A stretch of DNA of 64,000 bases. Origin: Patescibacteria group bacterium. GTDB taxonomy: Bacteria; Patescibacteriota; Minisyncoccia; Ryanbacterales; GWA2-47-10b. Numbering within the stretch: the first letter of the stretch is position 1; each line of letters begins with the position of its first letter. The notes under the pieces are model-generated. The model searched no databases, was not told where the DNA came from, and worked only from the letters and a program-made list of their open reading frames with translations. The translations under genes were made by a program, and so were the position numbers. The stretch lies in assembly GCA_038064855.1 (NCBI GenBank), contig JBBTSE010000002.1, positions 8,530-72,529 on the forward strand. Reading direction: 5' to 3'. Shown here one piece after another: positions 2,831-28,336 of the stretch.

Positions 2831-2962
2831 ATATCCTATGATTGACGGTTCCTTGACTACCCCGCCACCCATGGCGATCCCCATTCGGGGAGCCATGTGC
2901 TTTGCCTTGTACTGTGTCCCTCAAGCGAATCGCCGAAATTGCCGACGAGAAGGAGAGAGGTA

Positions 2963-3493
2963 ATGGGATCTTTGGCACTCCTCGCGCTACTTGCCTTCAT
3001 CCTCGCTGTCTACACGATCATTCGATATTGGGTTCTTGTGTACGCTCCCTCAGTTAAACATCTCGACTATGAGGATGCGTCGGATCATGTAAGGGACTTG
3101 ATCAAGGATATTGACGCCGCAAAATCCTCCATAACGATTCGTTGCCGTCGGTGTGACGTCGGAAACGCCAGCGCTGACCTTCAGGAGGAGTTTGTTAACG
3201 CAGCGCGACGCGCCGCAAAGAAAGGCGTCAAGAAGATCACCGTAGTTTGCGAGCAATTCCCCGAGTCGGAAGACCACATCATCAACCGGCTCGCTGCCGA
3301 AGGGATCGTCAAGCTAGAACAAGGGAACGTTCTAGTCTATGCGCGAGTTGTTGATGAGCGCACCGTAGTGACTGAGACCAATGCCAATTCTACCAACGCG
3401 CAACAGACGAGAGCTCTTGCGCCAGCTGGTTCCTGGGTCCGCGTTCGCCATGCGAGCAAGGCTCTCTTGGCAGACCTCCAGAAGGCCGCATAG
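2963..3493 (+). CDS. Hypothetical membrane-anchored protein
   Basis: ATG preceded by RBS gaaggagagagg. The N-terminal helix is MGSLALLALLAFILAVYTIIRYWVLVY. Local GC is lower (about 50%). Confidence 0.5.
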   Translation: MGSLALLALLAFILAVYTIIRYWVLVYAPSVKHLDYEDASDHVRDLIKDIDAAKSSITIRCRRCDVGNASADLQEEFVNAARRAAKKGVKKITVVCEQFPESEDHIINRLAAEGIVKLEQGNVLVYARVVDERTVVTETNANSTNAQQTRALAPAGSWVRVRHASKALLADLQKAA

Positions 3494-3560
3494 CGCGTCT
3501 CTGACTTTGGAAGTTCCTTCTGGATCCTGCTAGGTTCTCTGAGAAGGAGACCACCGGGAC

Positions 3561-4355
3561 GTGTCCACTGCTTGCGAAACCCATACGCTCTCTTGGGCGT
3601 ACTATTGTGTTTTCCCCGCGAAAGCAGCGACCGCGAGTGACTGTTTGCTTGGCGTAAATCCCCATCCCGGAATCACCTCAGCTGGATTCATCGATATTCG
3701 CACATGTCCCGATATCGAAACACAGTACTTCCTGCTGATAGCTCTTAGCATTGCGGCACTGAGCTATTTTCAGAGCATCATCAACGCACTCCCCGGCACG
3801 GTTGCAGGCATCGAAGAACGCGACGCTCTAACACCTGTATATACGAGTTTCGCGTTCGTAGGTACTGCGCCTCTTGTGCTGTTCGGGCTTGCGGGGATCT
3901 TTGCTGTCGTACCGTGGTGGTGGCATTTCGTCTGGGGGCTGTGGCTAGTGTTACTGCCCCTCTTTTTTTTGCGGGCGCAGGTTTTTGTGCGACGAGCGGT
4001 AGGGTCGCTTCGTGTCAGAGAGAGCTTGAGTCAGCTGAGAGCGCGACGAATTGCAAATCATGGCAACGCCGCAATTTGCCAAGCGATCGCCCGCCGCGCG
4101 GTCGTTGAGTTTACCTATGACGGGGCAACGCGAATCGTCGAACCTCACGCCCACGGCAGAAGTATCGAGGGAAACGAGGTCATGCGAGGTTTTCAGACAT
4201 CTGACCCAAGTCAGTCGGACGGGTCGATCGCTTGGGGACTCTACGAAGTGTCGAAAATCTCCGGCCTACGGGAGACCGGGGCAACATTTTCCAGTAATCG
4301 CTCCAATTACAATCCGAACGAGGAAGGAATGGGTGTCATCCATTGTCACGTCTAA
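3561..4355 (+). CDS. Hypothetical polytopic membrane protein with possible C-terminal WYL-like beta-barrel domain
   Basis: Several hydrophobic helices are present. The C-terminal segment VEFTYDGATRIVEPHAHGRSIEGNEVMRGFQ...WGLYEVSKISGLRET resembles the WYL pattern. The start codon within the ORF is uncertain. Confidence 0.45.
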   Translation: MSTACETHTLSWAYYCVFPAKAATASDCLLGVNPHPGITSAGFIDIRTCPDIETQYFLLIALSIAALSYFQSIINALPGTVAGIEERDALTPVYTSFAFVGTAPLVLFGLAGIFAVVPWWWHFVWGLWLVLLPLFFLRAQVFVRRAVGSLRVRESLSQLRARRIANHGNAAICQAIARRAVVEFTYDGATRIVEPHAHGRSIEGNEVMRGFQTSDPSQSDGSIAWGLYEVSKISGLRETGATFSSNRSNYNPNEEGMGVIHCHV

Positions 4356-4382
4356 CAGCGACCGCAACGGTCTTCTCTCGCG

Positions 4383-4478
4383 AATAGAATAGAGCCAGCT
4401 CCAAGTGGAGCTGGCTCGTGGCATTTCAGAGCTATCCCGATTCCACGAACGAGAAACGAGATGTAGCGGCCGCTGTTG
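4383..4478. repeat. Direct repeat copy A: hairpin GAGCCAGCTCCAAGTGGAGCTGGCTC plus a frameshifted remnant of the radC 3' end
   Basis: About 75% identical to 17990-18080. Both contain gagccagctcc...ggagctggctcgt...tttcaga.c..tcccg.ttccacgaacgaga...tagcgg. Confidence 0.7.
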
Positions 4479-4977
4479 GTGCCAGGCAACGCCTCCACAG
4501 CTACACGGGCTCCACTACCAGTGGACGCGCAAGGTCCAGGGCAAGACCGTCGCGCTCCGCATCACGCCTGTCGATGATCTCCTGAATCCGGAGGATCGAT
4601 GCACCGAGGGACGAAGCAAGCGGCTCCGAGTCGAACCAATCCCGGGGATCCAGGCGAGCCGGTCGTTCGAGGTGTCGCGATACCACCGCACACGCATAGT
4701 GGGATCACGAGTAACAGCTGCTCGGATGTGCGGTGGGTCGATGACAATAGCGGCGGATCAGACCACTACGTGTGCGGTGCGAGCCATACTCATGCGGTTG
4801 CCGTCGGTCCGGCGAGCGTTGGGGCGATCACCGGAGCCACGTCCTCTGCCGACAGCCGCCCGGAATTCGTGACCATCGCGCTCTGCCGAAAGAACTGACG
4901 GAGGAGTAGAGAGCAGGGTCACAACCCTGCTCTCTACTCCTCGCAGCCGCGAATGGAACAACGTCGGTGAGATCCAG

Positions 4978-7900
4978 CTACAGAACGTCCGTGGCCCTGC
5001 GGACACGTCGAGCGCCCTTTGCAAGTATGCGCGACACGGCCTCTACCCTGGCGCGGGAGTCGCTCGCGGTGGGTGCCCGGTAGTTGACGCGCACTTTGTA
5101 GCCGCGAACGGTCGCTGGTGTACCGGCTTCCGCCTCCTCGGTGTCGAGATGCACTATCAGCCCTTCCGGCGAGCAGACGGTGACGCGGGCTAGGCTCTCT
5201 GACGCAAGCGACGACTGGACTGCTCGTGAAAGGTCACGCAGCGCCGACTTCTCTCGCGCGACGGCGATCACTCGGTCGAAGCCGGCGGCAAGGCACTTCT
5301 GGATGTTCGCAAGCTCATGCTCGGGGTTGGTCGAGATTGAGATCTCGCAGGCGATGCGCTTTCCGTCACGCGAGAGCGCTACGTCGACTCGGCCCGCGCC
5401 ATCGAGGACGTCTTTCTCGATGGTCGCCTTCCAGCCGCGGTCCTCGGCAAGTCGCTTGATGAGGTGTTGGAGGTACTTGTGTTCGGCTCCGCCTCTGCCG
5501 GACGCCGGTGCGGCGGGTGACGTCGTCGCTGCAGGCGGACGTCGCGATGGCGGCGGTGTTGCCCTTGGCGGTAGGCAAGAGGTTGCAGGGACGGGGTGCT
5601 CCGCCACTACTGGCTCCATAGCCGCGATCGGGGTGTCGATCGTCGTTGGCCGCGGCTGCTCAACGTCGGTAGCCGCACGTTTGACTCCGAGCCCCGGCTC
5701 GACCGCTTCTCGCGGCCTCGCGTAGCTCTCGCGCGAAAGCCGGACAATCTCGTCCACCCGGGACCGAGCCTCGGAGGGATCGACCGCCTCGATCGGGAAC
5801 GTTCGCAAGTTGAAGTCCTGGTCACTGCGCTCAAGCCGGCAAATCGCCTCGCCCACGGCGAGGGACTGGAGATCGTTGGCATCGAACGAAGAGAATCCGT
5901 GCGCAAGCAGCCGCGCGTCCTGATCGCCGACGCGAAAGCAGATCCGGGTGGCGGGGTTGGTGAGCACAGCACTCGAAAGCCGTCCGTCCTGGTCTTGGAG
6001 TTGCCGCGTGTCTTGGTGCGCGAGCACCAGACCGAGATGGTACTTGCGAGCTTCGGCAAGGAGAGCGGCTACCGACGGGGTGGCAAAGTTCTGGAACTCG
6101 TCGATATAGAGGTGGAAGTCGGGCCGCTCGCTCTCGGCGAGCTGCTGGCGCGAGAGCGCAGCCTGATGGAATTTGGAGACAAGAAGCGCACCCAAGAGGT
6201 GCGCGTTTTCGTGTCCGATGATGCCCTGCGAGAGCTTGGCGAGGAAGATCTTCCGGCTGTCCATGAGTGACCGGAGGTCGAGCGTGCCTCGGCGCTGACC
6301 GACCATGAGCCGGATGAGCTTCGGGCGCAGGAACGCATCGAGTCGCGTCAAGATCGAGGCCGACGGATTGCCTTTGAGGAGCGGGTACTCCTTTTCGAAG
6401 TAGTAGACGACCTCCGCGTCCCGGACGCTCGCAAGGAACTCCTTCCGGAATGCCGGATCGACGAGGAACTTCCGGAGATCGAGGAGCGACCCGCCGGCGT
6501 CACTCTCGAGGAACGCGAGGATCGCGTTCCCCAAGATGGACGTCATCTGGTCCCCCCAGGATGTCGCGAATCTCCGGAAGATCGCGACGAGATCAGAGGA
6601 CAAAAGGTTCTTCTCGACCTCGGAGTGCGCTTCGAGCACGTTGAACCCGACCGGGTACTCCTCATCGGACGGATCGAGGATCGCAACGTCCGAGAACCGT
6701 TTCTCGGGAATCCGAGCAAGCACTTCGTCGATGAGGTCTCCGTGCGGGTCGAGCACCCCGACGCCGTCGCCGTTCTCGATGTCCTGCAGGATCATCCGGA
6801 GGAGCAGCGTGGATTTTCCGGTCCCTGATGCCCCGACCACGTAGGTGTGGCGCATCCGGAGATCAGGATCGATCGTGACCGTCCTGGTCTTCCCGCGATG
6901 CGTGTTCTCGCCAAGGACAACGCCCTTCCGCGAAGCTCCGGCCGCCGCTCTCGTGGTCCGTGCTTCCCGAGCGAGGCTCTCGGAGCGCACGGACACCGAC
7001 GGAAGGTGGACGAGCGAGACGACTTCATCACTCGAAAGGAGCATGCCTGACCGGTGCGTGCGCCGAGCGAGGAGATCTTCCTCGTGAAGGTCGTCCGGAT
7101 AGTCGTCGTTGGAAAGCGGGATCAGCTCATTGCCGCCGGGGTTCGCAAACTGCCCAAGGCTTCCGCCGAGCGTCCTGACCAATGACCATGCGCGTTCACG
7201 ATCGGGGCAGCGTGCGGCGACACGCACCACAGCAGCGAAGAAAGGATGCGCGATTTTCTCGGCTGCCTGCGATAAAATCTCGGGAGCGTCGGCAAAGAAG
7301 CTATCCCCATCACCATCCGTGACCGCGCGAAGAACGCTCGGCGCCCACGGGTTGCGTGTCGCCTGCGAGAGCACCTGTACGAGACCGACCTCATTGTCGC
7401 GAAGGTCCCCGAGTGCTGCCACCACCGAGATCAGAGGATCGACGTCGAAGTCCTTGGCAATCTTGAGCGGGAGCATGAACTCACGCGACAGCCCGAAGTC
7501 GACCACGAGGCCGTGCCCGTCATCCGCGCAGCTCCAGAGATCGCGAAGCGACTCGGTCGCTGGAACGATGCCCGTCTCGGGGAAGTAGGCACCGAGCGCA
7601 CGCCGGATATCCGCGGAGTCGGACGCACGACACGCGAGCGTGACTCGCACCTCGCCCGATCGGCCAGTTAGCTCGAAGGAGACCGGGTGCTCGACCGGCG
7701 AGAGCGCCAACAGAAACCGCTCGGCGCGCTCCTTGGTGACCTTCAGATCGCCGGGCAGCGTGATCGTGTGCTCGACGATCTCATCACCGAGCCGATCTTC
7801 GAGGGGAAGCGGTTCGTCATCGACCTCGCTTTGGAGGTGCCCGGCCTCGTTCGCCCGAGCGCTCGACCCGCGAAGGCGCTCCACCCAGCGGCTCAAGCGC

Positions 7901-8067
7901 GTGTGCTTGCGTCCATCGTCGCGCTGGCCCTGTCGTGGAGGCAGCGTGTGGCCGAAGAACGGCCGGAACGGAGGCTCGACGACGACCGGCGCATCCCACA
8001 CCTGCCAACCCCGACCGCGGATCTCCCAGCGGTAGAACTCCTGGGTGAGATGCTCCTCGACCGTCAC
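4978..8067 (-). CDS. Giant TraD/TrwB/VirD4-like (FtsK-HerA superfamily) P-loop ATPase with long N-terminal extension and a C-terminal restriction-endonuclease-like domain
   Basis: Walker A YVVGASGTGKSTLLL followed by DPHGDL; Walker B HLYIDEFQNFA; LVLAHQ motif. Pro/Ser-rich linker, then a C-terminal region (HKYLQHLIKRL...GRVDVALSRDGKRIACEISIS...FDRVIAV) with a PD-(D/E)xK-like pattern. It is the last gene of a five-gene operon. Confidence 0.8.
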   Translation of the reverse strand: MTVEEHLTQEFYRWEIRGRGWQVWDAPVVVEPPFRPFFGHTLPPRQGQRDDGRKHTRLSRWVERLRGSSARANEAGHLQSEVDDEPLPLEDRLGDEIVEHTITLPGDLKVTKERAERFLLALSPVEHPVSFELTGRSGEVRVTLACRASDSADIRRALGAYFPETGIVPATESLRDLWSCADDGHGLVVDFGLSREFMLPLKIAKDFDVDPLISVVAALGDLRDNEVGLVQVLSQATRNPWAPSVLRAVTDGDGDSFFADAPEILSQAAEKIAHPFFAAVVRVAARCPDRERAWSLVRTLGGSLGQFANPGGNELIPLSNDDYPDDLHEEDLLARRTHRSGMLLSSDEVVSLVHLPSVSVRSESLAREARTTRAAAGASRKGVVLGENTHRGKTRTVTIDPDLRMRHTYVVGASGTGKSTLLLRMILQDIENGDGVGVLDPHGDLIDEVLARIPEKRFSDVAILDPSDEEYPVGFNVLEAHSEVEKNLLSSDLVAIFRRFATSWGDQMTSILGNAILAFLESDAGGSLLDLRKFLVDPAFRKEFLASVRDAEVVYYFEKEYPLLKGNPSASILTRLDAFLRPKLIRLMVGQRRGTLDLRSLMDSRKIFLAKLSQGIIGHENAHLLGALLVSKFHQAALSRQQLAESERPDFHLYIDEFQNFATPSVAALLAEARKYHLGLVLAHQDTRQLQDQDGRLSSAVLTNPATRICFRVGDQDARLLAHGFSSFDANDLQSLAVGEAICRLERSDQDFNLRTFPIEAVDPSEARSRVDEIVRLSRESYARPREAVEPGLGVKRAATDVEQPRPTTIDTPIAAMEPVVAEHPVPATSCLPPRATPPPSRRPPAATTSPAAPASGRGGAEHKYLQHLIKRLAEDRGWKATIEKDVLDGAGRVDVALSRDGKRIACEISISTNPEHELANIQKCLAAGFDRVIAVAREKSALRDLSRAVQSSLASESLARVTVCSPEGLIVHLDTEEAEAGTPATVRGYKVRVNYRAPTASDSRARVEAVSRILAKGARRVRRATDVL

Positions 8068-8106
8068 GGCGAAGTCGATCTCACAGCGTGCTGGTGATCG
8101 GCAAGG

Positions 8107-8763
8107 CTACTTGTAGAACTCCCGCAAGACGGGCTTGCGTTCGAGCTCGGAGAGCGGCCGGAGACCCTTGGCCTGGGTTAAAGCGTCGATCACTTCCAAG
8201 ACGGCGCCATGCACCGCCTCCTGGAACATGAGCGTGGTGTCGATGCGAAAGTAGGTGAGCGGCCGGAAGAGGCGTTCGAACACCCAGCCGACCACCGGGA
8301 TCACGACGATGTAGACTTCCTTGCCGCTCTCGGAGAGCAGAACACCGACGATTCCCAGGCCGATCACGACAGCCAGAACTGAGACGAGCAGTCCCACGCC
8401 CATGCCGAGCTGAGAGCCGATCAGATTCCAGGCCACCATGAAGCCGATGACGGCTGCTGCGGTGGGCAGAACCGGCGACGGCCGCGGTTCCCCCAACCAC
8501 GTCGAGACGAAGAAGCTGTTGCCGAACGGTGCCGCGCAGATGTCAAAGCTGTGCCTGCCACGCGAAACCCGCAGGTACTCGCGCTTCGCGGACAGCAGAC
8601 CACCCTCTTGCCAGTCGATACGCGAAGGCTTTCCGTCGGGAACCTGACGCTTCTCGATCGCCTTCTCGACCGCGGTGTAGAACTCGAGCGACGAGGTCTC
8701 GAGATTCTCAATGAGCCGATGCCAATGGGAGATGATTGCAGCGGTGGGTATGGATCTCGGCAT
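8107..8763 (-). CDS. Hypothetical membrane protein (operon partner of the ATPase)
   Basis: Two central transmembrane helices (AAVIGFMVAWNLIG..., GLLVSVLAVVIGLGIVGVLL). Six-bp gap to the upstream gene and 40 bp to the ATPase gene. Start could be 8790 or 8763 (GGGGTGA RBS). Confidence 0.55.
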   Translation of the reverse strand: MPRSIPTAAIISHWHRLIENLETSSLEFYTAVEKAIEKRQVPDGKPSRIDWQEGGLLSAKREYLRVSRGRHSFDICAAPFGNSFFVSTWLGEPRPSPVLPTAAAVIGFMVAWNLIGSQLGMGVGLLVSVLAVVIGLGIVGVLLSESGKEVYIVVIPVVGWVFERLFRPLTYFRIDTTLMFQEAVHGAVLEVIDALTQAKGLRPLSELERKPVLREFYK

Positions 8764-8795
8764 GGCTTCACCCCTTGCTCCGGGGGTCACTCACA

Positions 8796-9359
8796 TCAAG
8801 GCTCTTGGTCCTTGTGCCGCGCGACACCCTCGTTGTGGTAGGCGAAGCCGGAGTAGGAGCCGTAGGGCGAGGAAAGCGTTCCAGTCCCGTCGGTGGACTC
8901 GGTTCGCGAATGGTCCTCGGTGAGCATACCGGCGAGAGTCCGGTCACGCCGGTGGTAGTTGGTCAGACCACGACGCTCGATGGTGTACTCGTAGACAAAG
9001 CGGTTGGTTGTGAAGCGAATCACCTTGCCGGCGTGGACCACTGCGTCATCCGTAAACTCGCCGCAATCTTTCGTATCTTGACTACACGGACCGCTCGGTG
9101 TGACGCAGGTCGTGATGGTCAAGCAGTAGCCCGCGATGATTGACTCTACGATCTCTGGCTTGCCGCCATCGCGCTCGACGGTTCTCCTCTTCGTTTTCCA
9201 AACCGAGAACGACATCCCCGTGTCCGCGTCGATGAGCTGGAACATGTTCGCGTTGAAGAACACGGTTCTTGAGGAGAAGCTCGAGGCCAGGGCAGGTGAT
9301 GCGATACCCGTAGCGACCGCTCCAATAAGTACAACTGTCGCTGCGGTCTTGTTCACCAT
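8796..9359 (-). CDS. Secreted hypothetical protein (signal peptide)
   Basis: The N-terminus MVNKTAATVVLIGAVATGIASPALA looks like a Sec signal. The gene is tightly packed in the operon. Confidence 0.55.
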   Translation of the reverse strand: MVNKTAATVVLIGAVATGIASPALASSFSSRTVFFNANMFQLIDADTGMSFSVWKTKRRTVERDGGKPEIVESIIAGYCLTITTCVTPSGPCSQDTKDCGEFTDDAVVHAGKVIRFTTNRFVYEYTIERRGLTNYHRRDRTLAGMLTEDHSRTESTDGTGTLSSPYGSYSGFAYHNEGVARHKDQEP

Positions 9360-9378
9360 ACGAGCGTCCAGCCCAGAG

Positions 9379-12300
9379 TTACGGCACGACGGTCAGCGGG
9401 CCGCTGGCGCAGACTGTCCCCGATGCCGTGCGGTAGTTGCAAACGCGGAGGGTGTACGTCCCCGCGGTCACGATCACGGAACCGCCAACGGTCAACTGGC
9501 CGATCGTACCGACGGGGCGTGTGTTCAGATCGGGTCGCGGTATCGGTGTGCCGTTCACATCCCACTGCAGGCTTAAGGCACCCTGGTTGTCCGAGTCTCC
9601 GAATACGAACCCGCTCCCGTTCACGCGGACATCATAGCCATTGAAGAGATTGCATGTCTGGCCGGCACGGCAGGTACCCGTGATCGATGAGATGACGGGC
9701 GATGGTTGATAGACCGCGAACTGGACGGTGTTGCTCCGCTGGCCGTTGGAGAAACTGGGCACGGGGTTATAGAGCTGGACAAAGTAGGTTCCTGGCCTCT
9801 CCGGGAATCCGACGCCGGAGCCCTCACCGAACGAATCGACATGGTAGGTCGCGAGTGTGCTGCTCGCAGGTGTTGCTCGAAGGCTCCCAAGCCCTGGCGG
9901 ATCAGAAGCACCCCACAAGAGATACAGGATCCCGGTACTGAAGTTCTGACCCGTGAATGAAAGATCGACAGCCCCCGTATTGAGCGTCACAGATGAAGGC
10001 GTGAAGTTATTGATTGCTGGCACGGGGAGCGCGGCGGTCGGTGTCGGTGAAGGGGTCGCTGTTGGGCTTGGAGTGATGCAGGCGAATTTCTGGATCCGAT
10101 CGATATCTGCGACATAGACATTGCTGGCAGAGTCAACGGCCACGCCGGTCGGTCCCCTGAACTCACCGCCGCCAGAGCCAGACATCCCCCATTGACCGAT
10201 GAATGTGCCGCTCTGGCTGAACTTCTGGATGCGACGGTTGGTAGTGTCGGCGACGTACACGTTACCACCATCGATCCGTACATCCTCCGGCCCCATGAGT
10301 TCGCCGACACCACTGCCCCCAGGTCCTCCCCACTTCGTGAGAAAAAATCCACCTGAACTAAATTTCTGGATGCGATTGTTCCCCGTATCGGCAACGTACA
10401 GGTTGCCTGTTGCATCCACCGCTACGGCGCGTGGTTGCAACAGCTCGCCGTCGAGACTTCCGACAGTCCCGATCTTCCCCACGAAGCCGCCGTTACCATC
10501 AAATATTTGGATTCTATGATTGTTTCGATCAGCTACATAGACCTTACCGCTAGTATCGAGAGCGACACCCGTGGGCTGATCGAATTGCCCATCGCCGGTA
10601 CCCCGCGTACCCCATACGAGCACGAATGTACCGGCAGTCGTGAACTTGTGAATGCGGTGATTCAGCCTATCGGTGACATACACATGCGTGCCATCAGTAG
10701 CGACGCCCGAAGGCGTGTCGAACTGTCCGTCACCCGCGCCGTAGCTTCCCCAACTACCAAGAAAGACCCCGTCGCTCGTGAATTTCTGTACGCGAAAGTT
10801 CTCCCTCTCGGTGACATACACGTTGTCGGCGGCGTCAACGGCGAGATGGTAGGCGCCGTTGAGCTGCCCATCCCCAGAACCAAGAGTTCCCCACTTGGTC
10901 ACAAATGTGTACTGGCACCCAGCGGTCGCTGTTGGGGTCGGCGTCGGAGAAGGAGGAGGTGTCGTGTAGAAGACCCGTGCCTGCACATAGTCCGCACGGC
11001 AGGTGTTGGTAGGCGTCGTGCCACGAGCCCAGCACCACATCCGTACGCGGAAGTTCAAGTCCGAAATCTCTCCCGGCGACCAGCTTCGTCCCCAGGTGTC
11101 GGTTGACCCACCGATCGTCCAGGTGCCACGACCACCAGAGAGACCACTCCCTCGGCAGTTGGGCGTCCCAGGTGTGGTGCTCACACATTCGCCGCCGCCT
11201 TCCGGATCAGGATTCACCATGTAAGCCGGAATGAACGAGCTACCGCCGTCGTACGACAGATCAGTGAAGATGTCGTCGAAGTAGTTACCTACGCCTACGT
11301 GTCCTTCAATCTGAACCTCGATACCGGTGACGGTTGCATCAGAGGGGAGTGAGAAGCCGAATCCGCCTACTTGGTGAGTTGGCCGCACGCTGCCAACCTT
11401 CATGCCGACTGCATCGAGATCATCGTCGGCGAAGAGGTTCTGGCCGTCGACCCAACCACCCGTCTGACTGCCGCCCAAGAGAAAACCCGTGTCAGTTGAG
11501 ACCGGGCTTGGCGTGTTTGTTGGAACTGGCGTTGGGCTGGGACTGGCGAGAGCGGGAGGTAGGCACACAAGGACGATGGTGTCCGTATCCTTCTGGCCAT
11601 CAATCCCAACCGTGCGGAGCTTGAAGGCCCGCGATGCTTTCTTGGGACCGTTCCGGCTCGACTTCAAGCGTACCCGAAGATCGACATCGCTCGTGTAGAG
11701 TGAGCCGATGAAGGGCAGGGCACCAACACCTGCAAGAGCATCGAGGAGCCCCATCCGGTTCATGGCGTCGTCCGCGTTCTTCTCCGAATCCTTCTCGCTT
11801 GGTTTCAAGAGTTCGTAGGACGCGATGCCCGGAGACACGCATGCGGGTAGCCGTAGGTCCTGGTGGTTGAAGATCAGCCGCGTGTTGAAGGTGCAGGCGC
11901 CATCAGCCGCGCCATCGAGATCGCACGCGGCACCGTCAGTGCAGGGCTGCTTCGACTTTGGCACACACTTGCGTGAGTCGAGTAGTAGCTCACCCGCAAG
12001 AGAAAACTCGCCGAAGCAGTCGGTCTTGGCAGAGCCGCCGCCCATCACGAGTGACTTGTCAGAGGCAGAACCGCACGAAAGGAGTCCTTTCAAGACATCA
12101 ATGTCGCCCTTGTCGATGACGCCGTTGCCGTTCAAGTCTCGCGGATCTTCGGGGTTTGCAGGGCGGCCGAGGGCGTCGCGGATGATTTTCTCATCTTTCG
12201 CATCAATACGGGTATCATCGGTCAAGTCACCACGGAACCGCGGCAGGCCGACTTCCAGCCGAATAATTCGTTGAGTACCACCCGGGAGATATACGAGGAG

Positions 12301-12897
12301 GCTGGCGACCCCGTAATCAATACCTGTAATTACAAACCGGGTCTTGCCTTGGCTTTCCTCACGTCGCACTGTGGCAACGCTCGGGTGAGCGGTCTCGATG
12401 AGGCTTTCCTGTAGGCCAGTTACATCAATGTCGACACCTTCGACGTAGGCATGAAGGGAAAGACTCTCTTCCTCGGCTGGGCGGACCGCCATCAGCTCCG
12501 GCACCTCAATTGCAGACCCATAGTCGAAATCGGGAAGCACTAATATCTCGACGCTATCGCGTAACACCGTCGTGCCAACTCGTCCGGCAATCCTCAGTGT
12601 AACGGGCCCGACGACGTCTGCAGGTAGCGGGAGCTGGATCATTCCGGAACCACCTGAGGCCCGGCCCGCCCCGCCGGGTACCGTCGCGACTAGCCCATCG
12701 AAGGTCACCCCGTGCGTATCTACCAGCACACTCACAATGTCGCCCCGCTGGAATTGCTCGCCAGGTGCGGGGCTAGTGATTTCGAGCATTGGGTCAGCCG
12801 CGGCTCGCCCAATCACGAGGAGCAAGACCGCAACCGTAACCACGACGATCGCAGTCGCTAGTAATGCCAACCGATTCATATACCAGGACATTATCAT
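9379..12897 (-). CDS. Large cell-surface protein with NHL-repeat beta-propeller, dockerin-like motif, Pro/Thr linkers and Ig-like C-terminal domains
   Basis: There is an N-terminal transmembrane/signal segment. Six NHL-type blades are visible (NFRVQKF, NHRIHKF, NHRIQIF, NNRIQKF, NRRIQKF, IDRIQKF). DLNGNGVIDKGDIDVL is dockerin-like. [21 protein letters not shown] are linkers. Confidence 0.75.
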   Translation of the reverse strand: MIMSWYMNRLALLATAIVVVTVAVLLLVIGRAAADPMLEITSPAPGEQFQRGDIVSVLVDTHGVTFDGLVATVPGGAGRASGGSGMIQLPLPADVVGPVTLRIAGRVGTTVLRDSVEILVLPDFDYGSAIEVPELMAVRPAEEESLSLHAYVEGVDIDVTGLQESLIETAHPSVATVRREESQGKTRFVITGIDYGVASLLVYLPGGTQRIIRLEVGLPRFRGDLTDDTRIDAKDEKIIRDALGRPANPEDPRDLNGNGVIDKGDIDVLKGLLSCGSASDKSLVMGGGSAKTDCFGEFSLAGELLLDSRKCVPKSKQPCTDGAACDLDGAADGACTFNTRLIFNHQDLRLPACVSPGIASYELLKPSEKDSEKNADDAMNRMGLLDALAGVGALPFIGSLYTSDVDLRVRLKSSRNGPKKASRAFKLRTVGIDGQKDTDTIVLVCLPPALASPSPTPVPTNTPSPVSTDTGFLLGGSQTGGWVDGQNLFADDDLDAVGMKVGSVRPTHQVGGFGFSLPSDATVTGIEVQIEGHVGVGNYFDDIFTDLSYDGGSSFIPAYMVNPDPEGGGECVSTTPGTPNCRGSGLSGGRGTWTIGGSTDTWGRSWSPGEISDLNFRVRMWCWARGTTPTNTCRADYVQARVFYTTPPPSPTPTPTATAGCQYTFVTKWGTLGSGDGQLNGAYHLAVDAADNVYVTERENFRVQKFTSDGVFLGSWGSYGAGDGQFDTPSGVATDGTHVYVTDRLNHRIHKFTTAGTFVLVWGTRGTGDGQFDQPTGVALDTSGKVYVADRNNHRIQIFDGNGGFVGKIGTVGSLDGELLQPRAVAVDATGNLYVADTGNNRIQKFSSGGFFLTKWGGPGGSGVGELMGPEDVRIDGGNVYVADTTNRRIQKFSQSGTFIGQWGMSGSGGGEFRGPTGVAVDSASNVYVADIDRIQKFACITPSPTATPSPTPTAALPVPAINNFTPSSVTLNTGAVDLSFTGQNFSTGILYLLWGASDPPGLGSLRATPASSTLATYHVDSFGEGSGVGFPERPGTYFVQLYNPVPSFSNGQRSNTVQFAVYQPSPVISSITGTCRAGQTCNLFNGYDVRVNGSGFVFGDSDNQGALSLQWDVNGTPIPRPDLNTRPVGTIGQLTVGGSVIVTAGTYTLRVCNYRTASGTVCASGPLTVVP

Positions 12898-12923
12898 GTT
12901 AATATTCTAGCACGATACTTTGC

Positions 12924-15900
12924 CTAGGGTTGTGGACTACTCGGGGGCACTCTAACAAACTGATCGACTACACCATCGAGCAAGTTAGCGATCTCGGCCG
13001 GAAGTTGCGGTCGCGAAAGGATTGATCGTGATGGAAATGGGGCATCCGGTATCCCGCAGTAGCCGACGGTGCCAGAGTAAACCTCCTGGATATCTCGCTG
13101 GAGTCTAAGATATCTCGCCAAAACAGTCGCGTCTGTGTGCAGATAGGGGCCGACTCCGGTCACCTGAGAGCCGGCTTGTGATAGCGTCTGACTCTGAATC
13201 GGCGACACGAGGTCCGTCAGGACCGCGGGGGAGCCCAAGAGCTGCGCCCCACCACTCGGCGGGCTCCATGCCACCGTACAGAAGGGCGGGGTCACAGGGA
13301 GATCCTGCAAATAGTCGGCGAGATGACAGAGGGCAGCATCCAGGCTGTTGGCATCATCCGCTGACGATGATGCAGAAACAAAATGCGTAGGTATCGAACC
13401 CGGCCGTGAGTTAAGCGTACGGAGGGCATCATTGGATGGGCAATCCGAAACCGGGCAGAGGTTCGCGACAGCTCCGTGGTGAGCCTGCCGAAGGTAGTTA
13501 CGCAGATCGTCATCGTCGTCAGAGAACCGAAGAACCGTGTCAACGATGCCGGCGACATCCGTCGAATACTCGAAGGGACAGGATACTATTGCGGACGCGA
13601 AGTCGAGGCCGACGGTGGCCCAGCGTGTGCCCTCGTGCGGTGTGTCGATGCTGACGAGCCTACGAACATCGCCCGCGAGAAAGTTCGACGGTCGCCTATA
13701 GAGGCCTCCAAGATGTTGATTTAATGCTTCAACACAGTCCTGAAAAAGGCCTGGAACCGGTTGGCAGAGTGGAAGAGTCCGAGTAGCCAGGGCACCCATA
13801 CTGTGTGCGACGACGTCGAGTTGGATCGCGACCGCATCGTTGTCGACTCCGAATCGATTGAGGCAGCCTCGAAGATCGCGAGCGATCTCGCCGGCGACAG
13901 TGGCGAAGGACGCGAATTGACTACCGGTGTAATCAGCTACGCAGTAGTAGTGCTTGTGAGGAGGCCGAATCGCAGGGGGAAAAGTCAGGTGAACGCTCGA
14001 ATCTGGGGGCGAGGCGGAGTTCAGGAATGACCGCCAAGTGTTTCTGCTGCCGCCGAAGCCATGCACGAGAAGAACAGGCGGCCGTAGAAGTCGCACGACT
14101 CGTTCAGGTGAGCTGCAAGGTTGATGAGGTGAAGACGGTGGATCTGGAGTAAACTGAATTGTATAGGGATAGGAACGGTCTCGAGTGGTGTCGTCCCCAA
14201 AATGATCGGGACTCTTGACGATGAAGTAGCCCAGGTGGCGAGTGACCGAGGCAGCGTTCTTTACTTCGGTCGTGCGTACCGATTGGCTGCAGGGATTTTG
14301 TGAAACAGCGCCCGCAAGGGTGTGGATGGATGGATTAAGGGAATTGGCAGGACAGTCGATTGAGAAGGTGATATCGCCCGGTTGCTGGGTCTCAAAAACA
14401 AAAAGGAGACGAGATACTCCGTCGCTGGCAAGCGCAGTTGGGTGCCATGCATAGTACGGAAGTCTAGAGGTAATTGAGGAGATATCTGAATTGACGAGTC
14501 CGGCGGAAGTCGCAAAGGATGAAGCGTCGTAGGTTATTACTTGCACAGAGTTGCAGGTAGATGTGGACGGTGAGCAACGGGGATCTAGGTCGTCGATAAA
14601 GTCGTTGCAGTCGTCGTCAGCGCCATTGGTGCAGGTGGGGTCACCCACGGGACCTTCAATGCCCGGTGGTGCGGGATAGTAACGGCAGGAATCGCCGACG
14701 CAGCGGTCGAGCGTGCATCCGTCCGCATCCTCGCAGTCGCCATTCAGCGCGCAGTCAGCAGAACCACCAATGCAGGCACAGGATGCGTTGCAGGTTTGGC
14801 CGGTTGAGCAATCGGACGGGGAGCCGTCACATTCTTCGTTGCAGCCGGCCTGGATGACATCGTCGCCGCAGTGAGGACCGCCCGCGCACACGCCGGCGGT
14901 GCAGCGGTCGTTGATCGTGCACGGGTCGGGGTCGGTGCAGCTGGTGTTGTTGGGGCGGGACTGTCTTTGGCAAGCGTGTGTAATGAGATTACAGACACCC
15001 GTGTTGCAGTCGTTGGCTAAGCTGGTGCACTGGGTATCGCTGGTGCAGCCGAGTATTTCGCACGCACCGCAGTCGCTTGCGCGGCACGTCTGGCCGCCGG
15101 CACAGCTTGACGGCAATCCGGTGTCACAGGCCTCCGTACCACAGACCCTTCCGTCGCCACACGAGACGGGACGGGGCTGTTGGACACATTGGTCGTTCGA
15201 TTCATTGCAGACACCCGTGTTGCATAGATCAGTCTGAGCGCTGCAATCTCTGGCCGTTCCGCCGACGCAGGTGCCGGCACCGTTGCACGCGTCGTTGATC
15301 GTACAGAACTGTGTATCGTCGCATGAGACGGTGTTGTTCGCTGTGACGCATTGCGCAGTGCTCGGGTTACAGGAGTCATTCGTGCAGGAGTTACCATCGT
15401 TGCAGCTCGTATGGCCGGGATCACTGCACGAACAACCGGCCGAATCGACAACCTGACCAGAGGAAGTCCCCGGACACGAGTCGCTCGCATCCGGAACACT
15501 GTCGCCATCGGCATCCGGAGGTACCCCACCTTGGCAGGTGCATGAAGCGGTGCAGGTCTGGCCGGCCGAGCAGCCGACTGGTGATCCATCACACTGCTCG
15601 CTACCTTCCTTGGTGTTGTTCCCGCAGGTTGTGATTAGCCAGTGTCCGTTGGTGCTCCAACCGGTCCCAGGGGACCCGGAGAGTTGCCACCAGAGGTTCT
15701 GCCCGATGTTCGTTCCCGCGTCGGCGCAGGTCGGTCCGCCGACAACGGTCATCTGTGTACCCGACGGCATCGTCGCCACGAGTGTTCCGGTGACACCTGC
15801 CGGATTGCGCAACCGTAAGTTGTGGCCATCGGCTGTGACGCTTACTGTGATCCCGATCGAGGGAAATGGTGTGAGCCATTCGGCGACCGCACTCCAGCCC

Positions 15901-16205
15901 TCGCGGTTCTGGTCGTCGCGCACCTGCCACCACCGAAAACCATCTGGCGTTACCGTGACGCCGTCACCGATTACCTGGAGGAAGTCGAGTGGTGGGTTTG
16001 TCCCGATCTCTGAGGAGGCAACCCCGGGCCCGTTCCTGAGTTTCAGGCCCGTCCCGCAGGTGTTGACGATCTGGACCTGCTGTCCGACCGAGATGGCAAG
16101 TGCCGGTGTCGCGTGAGCGAGAACCACTGCCGAAAGGAGAATGCTGGCTCCGCGGCACGCTCTCCGTGCCCACAGTCTGGACCAAGTCGCAGGCGTCTCC
16201 GCCAT
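12924..16205 (-). CDS. Secreted multidomain protein: tandem SH3b-like modules, Myxococcus-type cysteine-rich repeats, C-terminal alpha/beta-hydrolase (lipase-like)
   Basis: RBS GGAGGGGAG precedes ATG (MAETPATW...). Signal sequence with RR (WARRACRGASILLSAVVLAHATPALA). Repeats such as CGDGRVCGTEACD...C, and later PVLLVHGFGGSRN plus VVAHSMGALA (GxSxG). The alternative upstream start at 16286 is less likely. Confidence 0.7.
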   Translation of the reverse strand: MAETPATWSRLWARRACRGASILLSAVVLAHATPALAISVGQQVQIVNTCGTGLKLRNGPGVASSEIGTNPPLDFLQVIGDGVTVTPDGFRWWQVRDDQNREGWSAVAEWLTPFPSIGITVSVTADGHNLRLRNPAGVTGTLVATMPSGTQMTVVGGPTCADAGTNIGQNLWWQLSGSPGTGWSTNGHWLITTCGNNTKEGSEQCDGSPVGCSAGQTCTASCTCQGGVPPDADGDSVPDASDSCPGTSSGQVVDSAGCSCSDPGHTSCNDGNSCTNDSCNPSTAQCVTANNTVSCDDTQFCTINDACNGAGTCVGGTARDCSAQTDLCNTGVCNESNDQCVQQPRPVSCGDGRVCGTEACDTGLPSSCAGGQTCRASDCGACEILGCTSDTQCTSLANDCNTGVCNLITHACQRQSRPNNTSCTDPDPCTINDRCTAGVCAGGPHCGDDVIQAGCNEECDGSPSDCSTGQTCNASCACIGGSADCALNGDCEDADGCTLDRCVGDSCRYYPAPPGIEGPVGDPTCTNGADDDCNDFIDDLDPRCSPSTSTCNSVQVITYDASSFATSAGLVNSDISSITSRLPYYAWHPTALASDGVSRLLFVFETQQPGDITFSIDCPANSLNPSIHTLAGAVSQNPCSQSVRTTEVKNAASVTRHLGYFIVKSPDHFGDDTTRDRSYPYTIQFTPDPPSSPHQPCSSPERVVRLLRPPVLLVHGFGGSRNTWRSFLNSASPPDSSVHLTFPPAIRPPHKHYYCVADYTGSQFASFATVAGEIARDLRGCLNRFGVDNDAVAIQLDVVAHSMGALATRTLPLCQPVPGLFQDCVEALNQHLGGLYRRPSNFLAGDVRRLVSIDTPHEGTRWATVGLDFASAIVSCPFEYSTDVAGIVDTVLRFSDDDDDLRNYLRQAHHGAVANLCPVSDCPSNDALRTLNSRPGSIPTHFVSASSSADDANSLDAALCHLADYLQDLPVTPPFCTVAWSPPSGGAQLLGSPAVLTDLVSPIQSQTLSQAGSQVTGVGPYLHTDATVLARYLRLQRDIQEVYSGTVGYCGIPDAPFPSRSILSRPQLPAEIANLLDGVVDQFVRVPPSSPQP

Positions 16206-16314
16206 CTCCCCTCCGTCAGGTTGTCCCCGGTGCCGAGCACCAAGAGCTAGACCGGCCGGAACGCAAAAGTCAACCAGTACCGTCACCTACACCAAATGGT
16301 GTATCTCGCTCGGG

Positions 16315-17538
16315 GTGGCGGAACCGAAAGACGAACGGTCAGCCAGGCGGCGCTCTCATGCGCCGCACCCTCGCGATCTTCACCTGACCGATCTGGTCGG
16401 TCAGATCTACGAGGCCGTGGGAACCAGCGATGGCTGGGGTGTCTTCTTGGGCGGCCTTGCCGGAAGGATGCGCAGCGTAGCCCCGGCCCTCAACCTGACC
16501 GGCAAGGAACGTGACGCCGGTACGCTCTGGATCGCCCCTGGTCAGGACGACGAAGAGACGCGGCGCGTCTACGACACCTACTACCTCGCCCGTGATCCGA
16601 GGCGCCCCAAAATCCAGGAGACACCTGCCGGCGGAACCTTCATCGGCAACAGGGTCTTCCTCGATCGCGAGCTTGTCCGAAGCGAGTTTTTCAACGACTT
16701 CCTCCGGCCCCGAGACTTCTTCCACATCATGGGAGGAGTTCCCATCAAAGAGCCCGAACGGATGGCGGTGATCCGCCTCATTCGGCCGAGGAAGGCGCCA
16801 CCTTTCGGGAATCAAGAGCTTCGGCTCCTCAGAGTCGTCATGCCGCACCTCACCCGAGCCCTCCACCTCCACTGCGAGATTGCTCGCGTCGCGGACGCGC
16901 GAGACAGCGCTCACGAGGTGCTCGACCGGTTTCGGACGGGAGTCATCCTGCTCGATCGTGAGGGCAAGGTCATCACCGCAAACCTCCAGGCCCGTGCGAT
17001 CCTCGATCGCAGCGATGGTCTGTTGGTGAAGGACGCCACTCTCACTGCGGAGAGCACCGCTGCGAGAAGCGAGCTTGCCTCGACGGTCGCAGGGGTGCAG
17101 GCGCCCGACGGCAACGAGTCTGCGTCGCTTCGCATCCCGCGCTCCTCGGGGAAGAGACCGCTCGGGCTCCTCATCGCGCGGCTTCGAGGCAGACTTCTCG
17201 GCGACATCTCGAATCGAGCAGCGGTCGTTGTCTTCGTGAGCGATCCCGACGAGCAACGAGTGGCGCCGATCGACTTCGTCCGGCAGTCGCTCGGTCTCAC
17301 CAAGGCCCAGGCTCGTCTCGTTGTTTCGCTCGCTGCCGGCGGACGCCTGAAGGACATCGCCGAGAAGCTCGGCATCACCTATGCGACTGCACGCAGGGAG
17401 CTCTTCGACGCGTTCAAGAGAACCGGGGTGCACCGGCAGAAAGATCTGATCGGGCTCGTGGTATCGAGCGTCGGCTCGGTCATGCAACATGCGGACCTCG
17501 AGGTCGTCGGTGGTAGCGGCCATCGCCGATCTTCGTGA
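16315..17538 (+). CDS. LuxR-family transcriptional regulator (C-terminal GerE/LuxR HTH)
   Basis: C-terminal LTKAQARLVVSLAAGGRLKDIAEKLGITYATARRELFDAFKRTGVHRQKDLIGLV. The N-terminal DLVGQIYEAVGTSDGWGVFLGGLA is typical of large LuxR regulators. The start (GTG 16315) is uncertain; the gene is divergent from the 16205 operon. Confidence 0.65.
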   Translation: MAEPKDERSARRRSHAPHPRDLHLTDLVGQIYEAVGTSDGWGVFLGGLAGRMRSVAPALNLTGKERDAGTLWIAPGQDDEETRRVYDTYYLARDPRRPKIQETPAGGTFIGNRVFLDRELVRSEFFNDFLRPRDFFHIMGGVPIKEPERMAVIRLIRPRKAPPFGNQELRLLRVVMPHLTRALHLHCEIARVADARDSAHEVLDRFRTGVILLDREGKVITANLQARAILDRSDGLLVKDATLTAESTAARSELASTVAGVQAPDGNESASLRIPRSSGKRPLGLLIARLRGRLLGDISNRAAVVVFVSDPDEQRVAPIDFVRQSLGLTKAQARLVVSLAAGGRLKDIAEKLGITYATARRELFDAFKRTGVHRQKDLIGLVVSSVGSVMQHADLEVVGGSGHRRSS

Positions 17539-17920
17539 TCGCCTTCCCGCGAGACCAGCGCGCGACGGCCATGACCGCGGCTCTCGGATTGCGCGAGAGG
17601 GCAGGGATCCTCTTCTGGATTTCTGCGAGCGTGAACTCGTTCGGCAGTCCCGCGAGCACCTTGTCCCAGTCGATGCCGGAGGGCTGATTCCGCTTGCGGA
17701 CGACCTTCCTCGTTCGGGAGGACCGAGCCGGAGACCGAACGCGCACGCCCTGGGGCTGCCCTCGGCCAATACCGGAGAGTGCCGCGGTCCACTTCAGAGC
17801 TTCTTGTCGGAGACCCGAGAGGTGATTCTCCACGTCGGCGATCTCTCGGCGTATCAGGTCGAGCGTACGGTCGACCTGTCTGCGCAGGTTCCCGAAGATG
17901 TCGCGCTGTCTCGGCATGTC
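17480..17920 (-). CDS. Hypothetical protein
   Basis: ATG preceded by GGAGGGG RBS (MPRQRDIFGN...). Convergent with, and overlapping, the 3' end of the LuxR gene. No recognisable domain. Confidence 0.35.
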   Translation of the reverse strand, partial: DMPRQRDIFGNLRRQVDRTLDLIRREIADVENHLSGLRQEALKWTAALSGIGRGQPQGVRVRSPARSSRTRKVVRKRNQPSGIDWDKVLAGLPNEFTLAEIQKRIPALSRNPRAAVMAVARWSRGKAITKIGDGRYHRRPRGPHVA

Positions 17921-17989
17921 CCCTCCTGTTTGGCAGGCGAGAAGAACTGAAACGGGCGGCAACGTCAACGACAGCGCGGGTTGGATGCC

Positions 17990-18080
17990 GAAAAGAAAAG
18001 AGCCAGCTCCCTTTGGAAGCTGGCTCGTATCGTTTCAGAACCTTCCCGTGTCCACGAACGAGACATAGCGGTCATCGCCG
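17990..18080. repeat. Direct repeat copy B (hairpin GAGCCAGCTCCCTTTGGAAGCTGGCTC + intact radC 3' end)
   Basis: Matches 4383-4478. Here the radC reading frame is intact through the repeat. Confidence 0.7.
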
Positions 18081-18469
18081 ATCACGACATGGTCGAGAAT
18101 GCGGATGCCGAGGAGGTCTCCGGCCTCTTTGAGGCGGCGGGTGAGCGCAACGTCCTCGGCGGACGGCTCGGGATCTCCCGACGGGTGATTGTGAACGAGG
18201 ATGAGGGTGGCAGCATTCGCGATGATCGCCGCCTTGAACACCTCGCGCGGATGGACGAGCGACGCGGTCAGCGACCCGACCGACACCGTGTTGAAGCCCA
18301 TCACGCGACCCTTGCCGTCGAGGAGCACGGCGATGAACTCCTCGCGGTCGAGCTTCAGGAAGCGGTCACGGAAGGTGCGGAAGATCTGCTCGGAGCCGGC
18401 AACCGGCGAGCCGGCCAGACCGTAGCCGCCTCGCCGCTCTCGGACGACCTTGAGCTCCCACATGGTCAA
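18035..18469 (-). CDS. radC: RadC-like JAB/MPN domain protein
   Basis: HNHPSGDPEPSAEDVALTRRL (JAMM HxHPSG...S..D motif) and C-terminal DDRYVSFVDTGRF. Confidence 0.85.
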   Translation of the reverse strand: MTMWELKVVRERRGGYGLAGSPVAGSEQIFRTFRDRFLKLDREEFIAVLLDGKGRVMGFNTVSVGSLTASLVHPREVFKAAIIANAATLILVHNHPSGDPEPSAEDVALTRRLKEAGDLLGIRILDHVVIGDDRYVSFVDTGRF

Positions 18470-18846
18470 TCCTCCCCGGGGAGCATGATCGTGGCGACCG
18501 GTTCGCCTTCATCGCCAGGTCCGACATGGAGGATCATCTCCACAACCTCGGCGTCGATGAGGACCGAGAACGAGACAGAGCTGTCGTCGGGCCGTTTGCG
18601 GGCGGCGAGTGAGGACATCCACAGAACGTCGTGGGCTCTGCCGCGGGTGTCCTCGTGACTGTCCGCGGGCGCTTGGACGAGAGCCCAGACGGCGGCCGTC
18701 ATGGCGACCGGAATCCGGAATCCACCCATCATCTCGCGGGTGCTTGCCCACTCGGTCATGTCGACGAGCACGCCATCCTCGATCGCCTGACCGCGCGTGT
18801 AGCGGTGGACGACATCGGCGTCCGAAAAGAACTTTTCCATGGTCAC
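18466..18846 (-). CDS. Hypothetical protein (translationally coupled upstream of radC)
   Basis: ATGA overlap with the radC start. No recognisable motif. Confidence 0.5.
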   Translation of the reverse strand: MTMEKFFSDADVVHRYTRGQAIEDGVLVDMTEWASTREMMGGFRIPVAMTAAVWALVQAPADSHEDTRGRAHDVLWMSSLAARKRPDDSSVSFSVLIDAEVVEMILHVGPGDEGEPVATIMLPGED

Positions 18847-18998
18847 CCCTCGGGTGACTGTTCAGAGAGAGGAATCTCCCCCCGGGAGGTCTCGTCAAAG
18901 AACTCCCCGGGAGAGGTCTGCGAAAATGCAGACCGGATCGGGTGAAAGGTGATAGCGACAGTCGCGTCTCTTCCATCAACACAGAGGAGGACTCGCCG

Positions 18999-19211
18999 AT
19001 GCGCAGGTTTCTTGTTGGATCGATCGTGACTGTCGTTCTCGGATATTCAGCCTTCCCGCTGCAGGGGAGCACGCAAGCGGAGATCGCACCCGTCGTTCCT
19101 GATATCGTCGAGAGGAGCGGCTGCTGCTCATGGCACGGCGGCGTCTGCGGTTGCGACTCTGGGCGCGCCGTGTGTTGCGACGGTATGCTCAGCCCGTCGT
19201 GCGGCTGCTGA
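18999..19211 (+). CDS. Small secreted cysteine-rich peptide (about 70 aa, at least 9 Cys)
   Basis: RBS GAGGAGG precedes ATG. Signal-like MRRFLVGSIVTVVLGYSAFPLQGSTQA, then SGCCSWHGGVCGCDSGRAVCCDGMLSPSCGC. Confidence 0.45.
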   Translation: MRRFLVGSIVTVVLGYSAFPLQGSTQAEIAPVVPDIVERSGCCSWHGGVCGCDSGRAVCCDGMLSPSCGC

Positions 19212-19238
19212 TGGCGCGGTGACCGGCCATCTCGGAAT

Positions 19239-20456: not shown

Positions 20457-20560
20457 ACGAGACGGGAGGACTTGCCGTTCGCGGCAACATGCCCCGTCTA
20501 CTCGGCCCGCTCCATCCTCCTACGCTGAAGGCAGACGCTCTTTGGACAAAGGAGGATACG

Positions 20561-21100: not shown

Positions 21101-21212
21101 CCCACAAGGCCAGACGTTCCTCGGAGCGTCTGGCCTCTTTTTCAAGCTGGTTCCGGAAGGCAAAGAAAAAGCCGATTGGTTGGTCCAGTCGGCGGGGCGT
21201 ACCCGATTCGGG

Positions 21213-21739: not shown

Positions 21740-21909
21740 GTGTAGGGAGACCGGCCAACAGTGTCAACCTATGTTTAGTAGCTTGTAAAGAACGCCGCGC
21801 TCTTCTCCTGATTGTCCACGTGACGATGAAGCCCTGCATGCTCGTAGTGTTGTTTGTAAGGAGTACGAGGTCGCCGATTTGGCGATTCACTTCCGAGCCG
21901 GAACGTCTC

Positions 21910-23625: not shown

Positions 23626-23660
23626 TCGTGTGAGACTATTTTTCACGTGAAAGCATGATT

Positions 23661-28276: not shown

Positions 28277-28336
28277 AGAAGCATCAAGGGTGATAGGTTC
28301 CCCAGGTACTCTTGGCTATAAAACTTAAAAAAACAA

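Follow-up and report, generated by a model that had tools for sequence, protein, structure and literature searches.

Two copies of a radC 3' end in a high-GC island

The 64,000-nucleotide stretch of contig JBBTSE010000002.1 analyzed here, termed the window, comes from a metagenome of the 0.1-um fraction of Hainich groundwater, and belongs to a 143.5-kb contig bearing the NCBI name Patescibacteria group bacterium. From position 1 to approximately 22,905 the guanine-plus-cytosine (GC) content of the window is 58-66%, and in the rest, the host part, about 48%. The host part encodes RNase Y, iPGM, H+-PPase, NusA, PilB and four transfer RNAs (tRNAs). Proteins of the high-GC region are nearest to those of Binatia metagenome-assembled genomes (MAGs), for example a 405-aa ATPase (88%) and a 1029-aa ATPase (75-78%), and the region is a foreign island in a Patescibacteria contig. 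Within this island the 3' end of a radC gene occurs twice together with its terminator, as direct repeats at a distance of 13.6 kb. The pair is probably the scar of a recombination between two related radC-bearing elements, that is, a product of ordinary mosaic decay. The features on which this reading is built are the following.

17989-18077, minus strand: right copy, the functional radC 3' end, comprising the last 14-15 or so codons, the stop codon TGA (18035-18037), a spacer, a hairpin (18000-18026) and a T-tract (17990-17999)
18035-18463, minus strand: short RadC-like JAB gene of 142 aa (PF04002, E = 9e-44), whose translation ends in ...HVVIGDDRYVSFVDTGRF and the stop
4381-4476, minus strand: left copy, relic of a second radC allele, with about 15 codons (GRYIS..FVESG and the stop), a hairpin (4392-4417) and a T-rich tail (4381-4391)
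4448-4461: 7-nt tandem duplication AACGAGA/AACGAGA, which frameshifts the relic
4495-4572, plus strand: 5'-truncated DUF6788-like fragment, found by six-frame translation (PF20586, E = 2.8e-7, profile positions 27-69 of 103 only)
4901-4942, minus strand: hairpin with a perfect 19-bp stem, immediately past the 1029-aa ATPase gene (-43.4 kcal/mol, z = -8.1)

The best local alignment joins positions 4381-4454 to 17989-18063, with 61 of 74 ungapped columns matching (82%) and a score of 78, compared with 16 +/- 2.6 and at most 28 for 2835 segments of 140 nt drawn at random from the island. Beyond a 7-nt gap the homology runs on for about 15 nt more, to ~4476 and ~18077. A sequence-only reading of this DNA had described repeats of ~90 bp at these two sites, and precise alignment, giving 4381-4476 against 17989-18077, places both within a few bases of that description. 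The longest exact match between the copies is 13 nt, and the similarity reaches approximately 45 nt into the radC coding sequence. The hairpin pattern GAGCCAGCT-N(3-12)-AGCTGGCTC occurs twice in the 64 kb, at 4392-4417 and 18000-18026, where 100 shuffles gave an expectation of 0.

The right copy was rightly taken in that reading for the true C-terminus of radC, since the open reading frame (ORF) at 18035-18463 terminates within it. The encoded 142-aa protein passes the Pfam cut-off for PF04002 with 148.8 bits against 22.1, and does not reach the canonical RadC profiles of NCBIfam (NF000642, 143.8 against 180; TIGR00608, 133.7 against 133.85). It covers only positions ~91-216 of these profiles and is a JAB-only form, of which homologues of 141-142 aa number in the thousands. 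The left copy is a frameshifted remnant, as had been proposed, with a premature TAG at 4433-4435 two codons ahead of the ancestral TGA at 4427-4429. The insertion described as 5 nt long is in fact an exact 7-nt tandem duplication, evident both by direct reading and as a 7-column gap in the alignments, including a mafft panel. On the relic side no further radC similarity was found upstream of ~4476.

Both copies have the same layout on the radC strand, in which ~15 final codons and the stop codon are followed by a short spacer, a GC-rich stem of 11-12 bp and a T-rich run, and both are called intrinsic-terminator-like on the minus strand. The right hairpin has a predicted energy of -28.9 kcal/mol (z = -5.5 against shuffles) and the left one of -24.6 kcal/mol (z = -4.4), the 11-bp stem of the latter being perfect. 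A matching hairpin stands directly after radC in the related loci L084, L087, L088, L006 and L004, and L007 has a covarying version, GAGCCAACC..GGTTGGCTC, with two compensatory changes. In an alignment of nine sequences 98% of the stem pair cells hold a base pair, and compensatory changes are seen in two pairs. The form of the unit, a GC-rich palindrome with a T-run, would also be open to a repetitive extragenic palindromic (REP) element or a generic terminator repeated behind many unrelated genes, an outcome that the sequence-only reading had named as fatal to its own interpretation. Such an identity is extremely improbable: two copies are present in 64 kb, the similarity enters the radC coding sequence, and across 87 fetched loci the hairpin was found only straight after radC or a radC relic. 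Because hairpin and T-tract always follow radC in the relatives, the repeated unit is the conserved radC terminator of this clade, predicted to be Rho-independent, and not a generic REP element.

A related question is why the left hairpin has persisted. The relic may still act as a terminator of radC-strand transcription. It might have been kept because its hairpin still terminates or insulates between the convergent recombinase-cargo operon on the plus strand and the ATPase side on the minus strand. The hairpin is intact, is scored as a minus-strand intrinsic terminator, sits 28 nt past the stop of g3561 between the convergent gene sets, and is identical in all assemblies of the population. 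However, GTGGCATTTCAG, which follows the stem on the plus strand, makes a poor U-tract, and minus-strand transcription coming from the ATPase gene meets first the far stronger hairpin at 4901-4942, which is probably that gene's own terminator. Retention for this function is unlikely; it concerns persistence and is compatible with the origin favored here.

Backbone, variable cargo and recurring radC relics

Loci were fetched around radC homologues and around homologues of the 1029-aa ATPase. Their comparison with the island divides the latter into the following blocks.

4978-8790, minus strand: backbone block B, with g8107 (8107-8790) and the 1029-aa protein
18466-21100: rest of backbone block A, with a DUF6573 gene (18466-18846, minus), the 405-aa ATPase gene (19239-20456, minus), similar to type IV coupling proteins (T4CP), and the divergent g20432 (20432-21100, plus)
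8796-17988: variable cargo 1, with g8796, an NHL-repeat protein of 1172 aa, an SH3/hydrolase protein of 1120 aa, a LuxR-type helix-turn-helix (HTH) gene (16141-17538, plus) and g17480
2157-4355, plus strand: variable cargo 2, the orphan genes g2157, g2897 and g3561, all in one orientation and converging on the relic terminator
22895-22910: right edge of the high-GC island, a sharp fall in GC from 0.59 to 0.29, present also in the independent assemblies L002 and L003

It can be observed that the backbone shared with the relatives consists of block A (the divergent g20432, the 405-aa ATPase, DUF6573, radC and the terminator), block B (g8107 and the 1029-aa protein) and a large serine recombinase. 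The 1029-aa protein shows a faint DUF8128 match, an ATPase domain of T4CP/HerA type (TrwB/TraG-like) and a nuclease-like C-terminus. The order block A, cargo, block B on one strand is common to the window, L091 (a Binatia MAG, on the same contig as L004 and L085), L087 and L007, and the cargo between the blocks differs. DNA homology to the relatives covers window positions 21140-17994 and 8748-4999 with nothing between, and the homology of the backbone ends at 4999-5075. Within block B the DNA identity is 75-82% in L087, L090 and L091, and L091 is colinear with the window past this block as well, including HTH-coding sequence of the recombinase gene (window 1410-1810, L091 20004-20404). On the radC side, homology to L088, L087, L091 and L084 stops at 17989-17997, a few bases from the terminator T-tract; in the nearest radC relatives, L088 and L089 (82%), it ends right after the T-tract and unrelated genes follow.

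Of 64 genome loci, 60 contain g8107 paired with the 1029-aa protein; the loci stem from Binatia, Verrucomicrobiota, Acidobacteriota, Bacteroidota, Planctomycetota, Sumerlaeota, Proteobacteria and others. The unnamed backbone, with two T4CP/HerA-like ATPases, g8107, DUF6573, the RadC-like JAB protein and the large serine recombinase, spans at least 10 bacterial phyla, and the high-GC island of the window is one copy of the element within a Patescibacteria genome. A plasmid database gave only distant ATPase-domain matches to the 1029-aa protein and no full-length homologue, and the sole match of the backbone gene set in a defence library was to mad8 (E = 2e-23). No mention of DUF6573 and no description of this element family were found in the literature. 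The gene set, seen in loci L090-L153 and usually linked to the serine recombinase, is apparently undescribed.

The sequence-only reading had placed giant proteins, an ATPase and a LuxR regulator in the block bracketed by the repeats, with which the domain searches agree, the LuxR-type HTH match being weak. It had also regarded the block as an element inserted into the radC 3' end. The gene, however, lies inside the high-GC island and is syntenic with the element backbone in the relatives, and it is thus a backbone gene of a mobile element and not a chromosomal radC. Furthermore, the bracketed 13.6 kb is not one foreign unit, because its left third (g8107 and the 1029-aa ATPase) is ancestral backbone, and only 8796-17988 is lineage-specific. 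No counterparts of cargo 1 were found in L087, L091, L007 or L088, the exception elsewhere being a LuxR-type gene in L084. For g2157, g2897 and g3561 there were no family matches in Pfam, NCBIfam, PADLOC or PHROGs; among 5.8 billion clusters g3561 matched only itself, and g2157 and g2897 had no homologue in any fetched locus. When the left-flank genes of L001 were compared with all loci, the recombinase alone was matched.

Truncated radC ends are not confined to the window. In L091, a relic of ~170 coding nt with a 1-nt frameshift and a terminator lies 4.2 kb downstream of the intact radC, and the intervening 4.2 kb holds only a 423-aa protein of unknown kind and a methyltransferase-domain protein. 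Over its last ~120 alignment columns this relic shares 85-93% identity with radC of L084 and L087, compared with only 80-83% with its own neighbor. The relic of L117 comprises the C-terminal 46 aa with its own terminator, and that of L115 is an internally deleted copy or internal piece of radC. The start of the relic before the stop codon consequently varies, from ~45 nt in the window through 46 aa in L117 to ~170 nt in L091, with the L115 piece being internal. On a separate point, the L091 cargo that separates the 1029-aa ATPase from the HTH end (16659-19992) includes an OLD-family ATPase/TOPRIM protein beside a UvrD-type helicase, a pair whose resemblance to Gabija suggests that the variable slots carry defence genes.

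The serine recombinase and the attachment-site reading

The only recombinase of the island lies outside the bracketed block, at the left end of the window.

1-1892, plus strand: large serine recombinase with a double XRE-HTH domain, 655 aa at full length (L001 6365-8332) and lacking its first ~25 codons in the window
1390-1435: quasi-palindrome of 46 bp with 17-nt arms and a 12-nt spacer, inside the recombinase gene, the putative attP

The position of its attachment site can be derived from broken copies in other loci. The closest recombinase relatives, P0123 (90%) and P0124 (87%), diverge right past ...HLPFVGKTVAERQR, at residue ~494. DNA homology to L157 ends after GGCAACGC at window position 1406, followed by an antisense truncated comM (L157 10001-12837), and in L091 a stand-alone double-HTH ORF of 162 aa (19904-20416) is present, with the homology to the window beginning at the same break. 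The N-terminal part of the recombinase adjoins comM ending in AMNP in L101, L112, L113, L120 and L157, and the HTH-bearing C-terminal part adjoins comM from CPCG onwards in L104, L129, L142 and L117; all junctions fall at AMNP/CPCG of comM and at residue ~494 of the recombinase. Taken together, these junctions indicate that the recombinase probably targets comM with an att site inside its own gene, so that integration would split the gene and detach the double-HTH domain. In the window, outside of which the left end of the island falls, the recombinase gene is unsplit, and a tblastn search of both comM halves against loci including L001, L154 and L155 found no comM from -6,439 to 14,355 in window coordinates, positions 14,356-24,000 not being searched.

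Suicidal integrases, the att site of which lies in their own gene, have been described as known only from archaea (FEMS Microbiol Rev 2021, PMC8371274). The likeness to the SSV-type tyrosine integrases of archaea is that integration splits the recombinase gene in relatives of the island. Here, in contrast, the enzyme is a bacterial large serine recombinase, the target is comM, and only the C-terminal double HTH is detached, leaving the catalytic part whole. The junctions thus provide comparative evidence for the integration of this recombinase into comM at a site in its own gene.

This location bears directly on the proposal of the sequence-only reading that the two radC repeats are attL and attR of a 13.6-kb element, inserted site-specifically into the radC 3' end and supplying a replacement end with its terminator. 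The topology does fit: the intact gene end faces the block, the displaced and inactivated end lies on the far side, the two ends are different alleles, and L091 shows a matching arrangement around its 4.2-kb block. Five characteristics of an attachment pair were considered, of which one, direct repeats, is seen, and four are lacking, namely a recombinase inside the block, an empty site or circle, a foreign block and a shared crossover. No ORF of 4479-17988 matched a recombinase in Pfam, NCBIfam, PADLOC or PHROGs, and neither the window block nor that of L091 holds an integrase, transposase or excisionase. Inverted repeats at the block ends gave chance-level matches only. Backbone genes that keep synteny with radC in every close relative are part of the block, the relic breakpoints vary among lineages, and the inner left end is a truncated gene. 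In addition, the supposed attP would have to carry the clade-specific radC terminator, and therefore the donor itself would have been a related radC-bearing element. The mapped att site of the resident serine recombinase at 1390-1435 is unrelated in sequence to the radC repeat, so that the attachment reading loses its only candidate enzyme.

An empty site in related genomes and a circular excised form had been named as supporting evidence for the attachment sites. Three exact-protein look-ups, with g3561 (5 contigs), radC (5) and g4599 (6), which overlap, yielded no empty site and no circle junction; the population loci retrieved show one arrangement, and only L002 departs from the window sequence, by 5 mismatches. 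Nor was an empty site found in the nearest relative, L088, where homology stops at 17989 and unrelated DNA follows, the reach of this search being limited by the orphan status of g3561. What stands of the attachment proposal is a displaced, allelic radC end; att sites of a discrete 13.6-kb element are unlikely.

Known systems lead to the same distinction. Classical integrases acting on gene 3' ends resemble the present case in the direct repeats over a gene 3' end, with the gene intact on one side and the displaced end on the other. They differ in that here the block holds no integrase, no empty site was found, the block includes backbone, the breakpoints vary, the target gene is element-borne, and the element's own recombinase acts at another site. 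Tn554 carries its own transposition genes, the tyrosine-recombinase-like TnpA and TnpB together with TnpC, and is not known to duplicate the gene end; no TnpA, TnpB or TnpC gene was found in the window block. The likeness to Tn554 lies in an interrupted radC 3' region and in 3' radC remnants beside mobile DNA. Its family inserts at att554 in the radC 3' region of staphylococci, where such remnants have been reported (bioRxiv 10.1101/2020.09.30.320143), a precedent that speaks for radC 3' regions as targets. The target of Tn554, however, is the full-length chromosomal radC of Staphylococcus, whereas the radC considered here is element-borne.

Origin of the left copy and further features of the contig

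The left copy is best supported as the displaced and inactivated radC 3' end of an allele other than that of the intact gene. Despite the 18% divergence, its stem is intact and its coding differences from the intact radC are conservative (V>I, D>E, T>S), which argues that both copies were still working while they diverged and that they were joined later. The relic shows the island to be a mosaic to which at least two related elements have contributed. The truncated DUF6788-like fragment abuts the 5'-truncated radC head-to-head, and the meeting point of the two is a junction scar; no DUF6788 was found in the loci of the relatives. Sliding identity revealed no mosaic breakpoint inside the intact radC genes, and no clear sign of recombination emerged from block-wise identities among the window, L091 and L087; the 232-aa neighbor of the L091 relic is unrelated to the genes downstream of radC in L087 and L084.

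The direct repeats, in one orientation and within one island, could also have arisen by segmental duplication of the radC end in place, followed by neutral decay of the extra copy. Old duplications within the element are indeed displayed by its paralogous ATPase genes, with patches of 74-83% DNA identity at 6014-6143 and 19480-19609. At 18% divergence, however, a neutral copy should have lost its 11-bp stem, which is perfect, and should not be left with conservative codon changes, and the relic of L091 is nearer to the alleles of other elements than to its own neighbor. The 405-aa ATPase and the ATPase core of the 1029-aa protein are only 36% identical at the protein level, and distant phyla have both paralogues, so that the ATPase duplication is ancient and unrelated to the relic. 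Duplication in place is accordingly quite unlikely.

Recombination between two related elements, the likely origin of the pair, would have brought in the end and terminator of the second, ~18% diverged radC allele. By one route, an incoming relative would anchor homologously in the conserved backbone and join illegitimately at the far end. By another, a co-integrate of two relatives would form and then suffer a deletion from the DUF6788 gene into radC. Both routes fit the observed structure and cannot be told apart. In either case the join would fuse radC at about codon -15 to the truncated DUF6788 gene, stranding the last ~15 codons and the terminator of the other allele ~500 bp beyond the 1029-aa ATPase gene. 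The resulting order would be the intact radC with its terminator, cargo, block B, the junk joint, the relic, and then the relic's own downstream genes g3561, g2897 and g2157 and the recombinase. The 7-nt duplication would represent a later slippage event. On this reading no dedicated att recombination acts on the radC repeats.

Gene-fragment scars in mosaic integrative elements arise by tandem accretion, by co-integration followed by deletion, and by homology-facilitated illegitimate recombination. Scars of this kind in integrative elements and islands are the best-fitting class for the present pair: a truncated backbone gene copy of a second allele lies beside variable cargo, two truncated genes form the junction, the breakpoints differ by lineage, and no dedicated recombinase is involved. 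In comparison with the scars that have been described, the parental elements are not seen here, and the order of events and the type of recombination are inferred from the anatomy only.

Several observations weigh against a recombination between related elements. All comparisons rest on metagenome assemblies. No parental element with the left allele beside g3561 was found, g3561 being an orphan, and the course of events cannot be retraced exactly. With a longest exact match of only 13 nt, homologous crossover within the repeat is unlikely, and a backbone anchor elsewhere together with an illegitimate joint must be assumed. Moreover, two independent lineages, the window and L091, both display an intact radC, new cargo and a radC 3' relic, which could hint at a more specific process. 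The radC end with its terminator might be a preferred point of cargo capture in this comM-targeting element family, each capture adding a fresh end and pushing the old one outward. This is a tentative idea and rather unlikely; if it were true, the relics of the window and of the Binatia relative would mark successive cargo gains by a semi-specific process instead of random decay.

Read as a recombination scar, the repeat warns against taking any gene-end duplication for an att site, and the relic would date and orient an event of cargo gain in the island.

Further features were noted around the right edge of the island and in the host part. Near the edge lie a HicA/HicB toxin-antitoxin pair and a NUDIX hydrolase (21343-21739; 21910-22635), and beyond it the UPF0102 gene of the host followed by tRNA-Pro(TGG) at 23661-23732. 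The latter is 81% like tRNA-Pro(GGG) at 57599-57672. The contigs behind L001 and L003, which are independent assemblies, end at or just before this first tRNA-Pro (~23,696-23,725), and the island edge lies ~750 bp further left. Between 25749 and 27425 there are several families of direct repeats of 160-170 nt, spaced at ~261-264 nt or multiples thereof, with codon runs rich in proline and glycine. They lie downstream of a 454-aa ORF (23989-25353) with a metal-binding motif of MopE type, and a related motif occurs at 60355-60417. Finally, the host part contains two near-identical pairs of hairpins flanked by A/T, AAACAAAAAAGCGCC..GGCGCTTTTTTGTTTT at 28331-28365 and 34736-34770, and CAATCCGCCTAGAG..CTCTAGGCGATTTT at 58525-58562 and 61400-61437, which look like reused bidirectional terminators.

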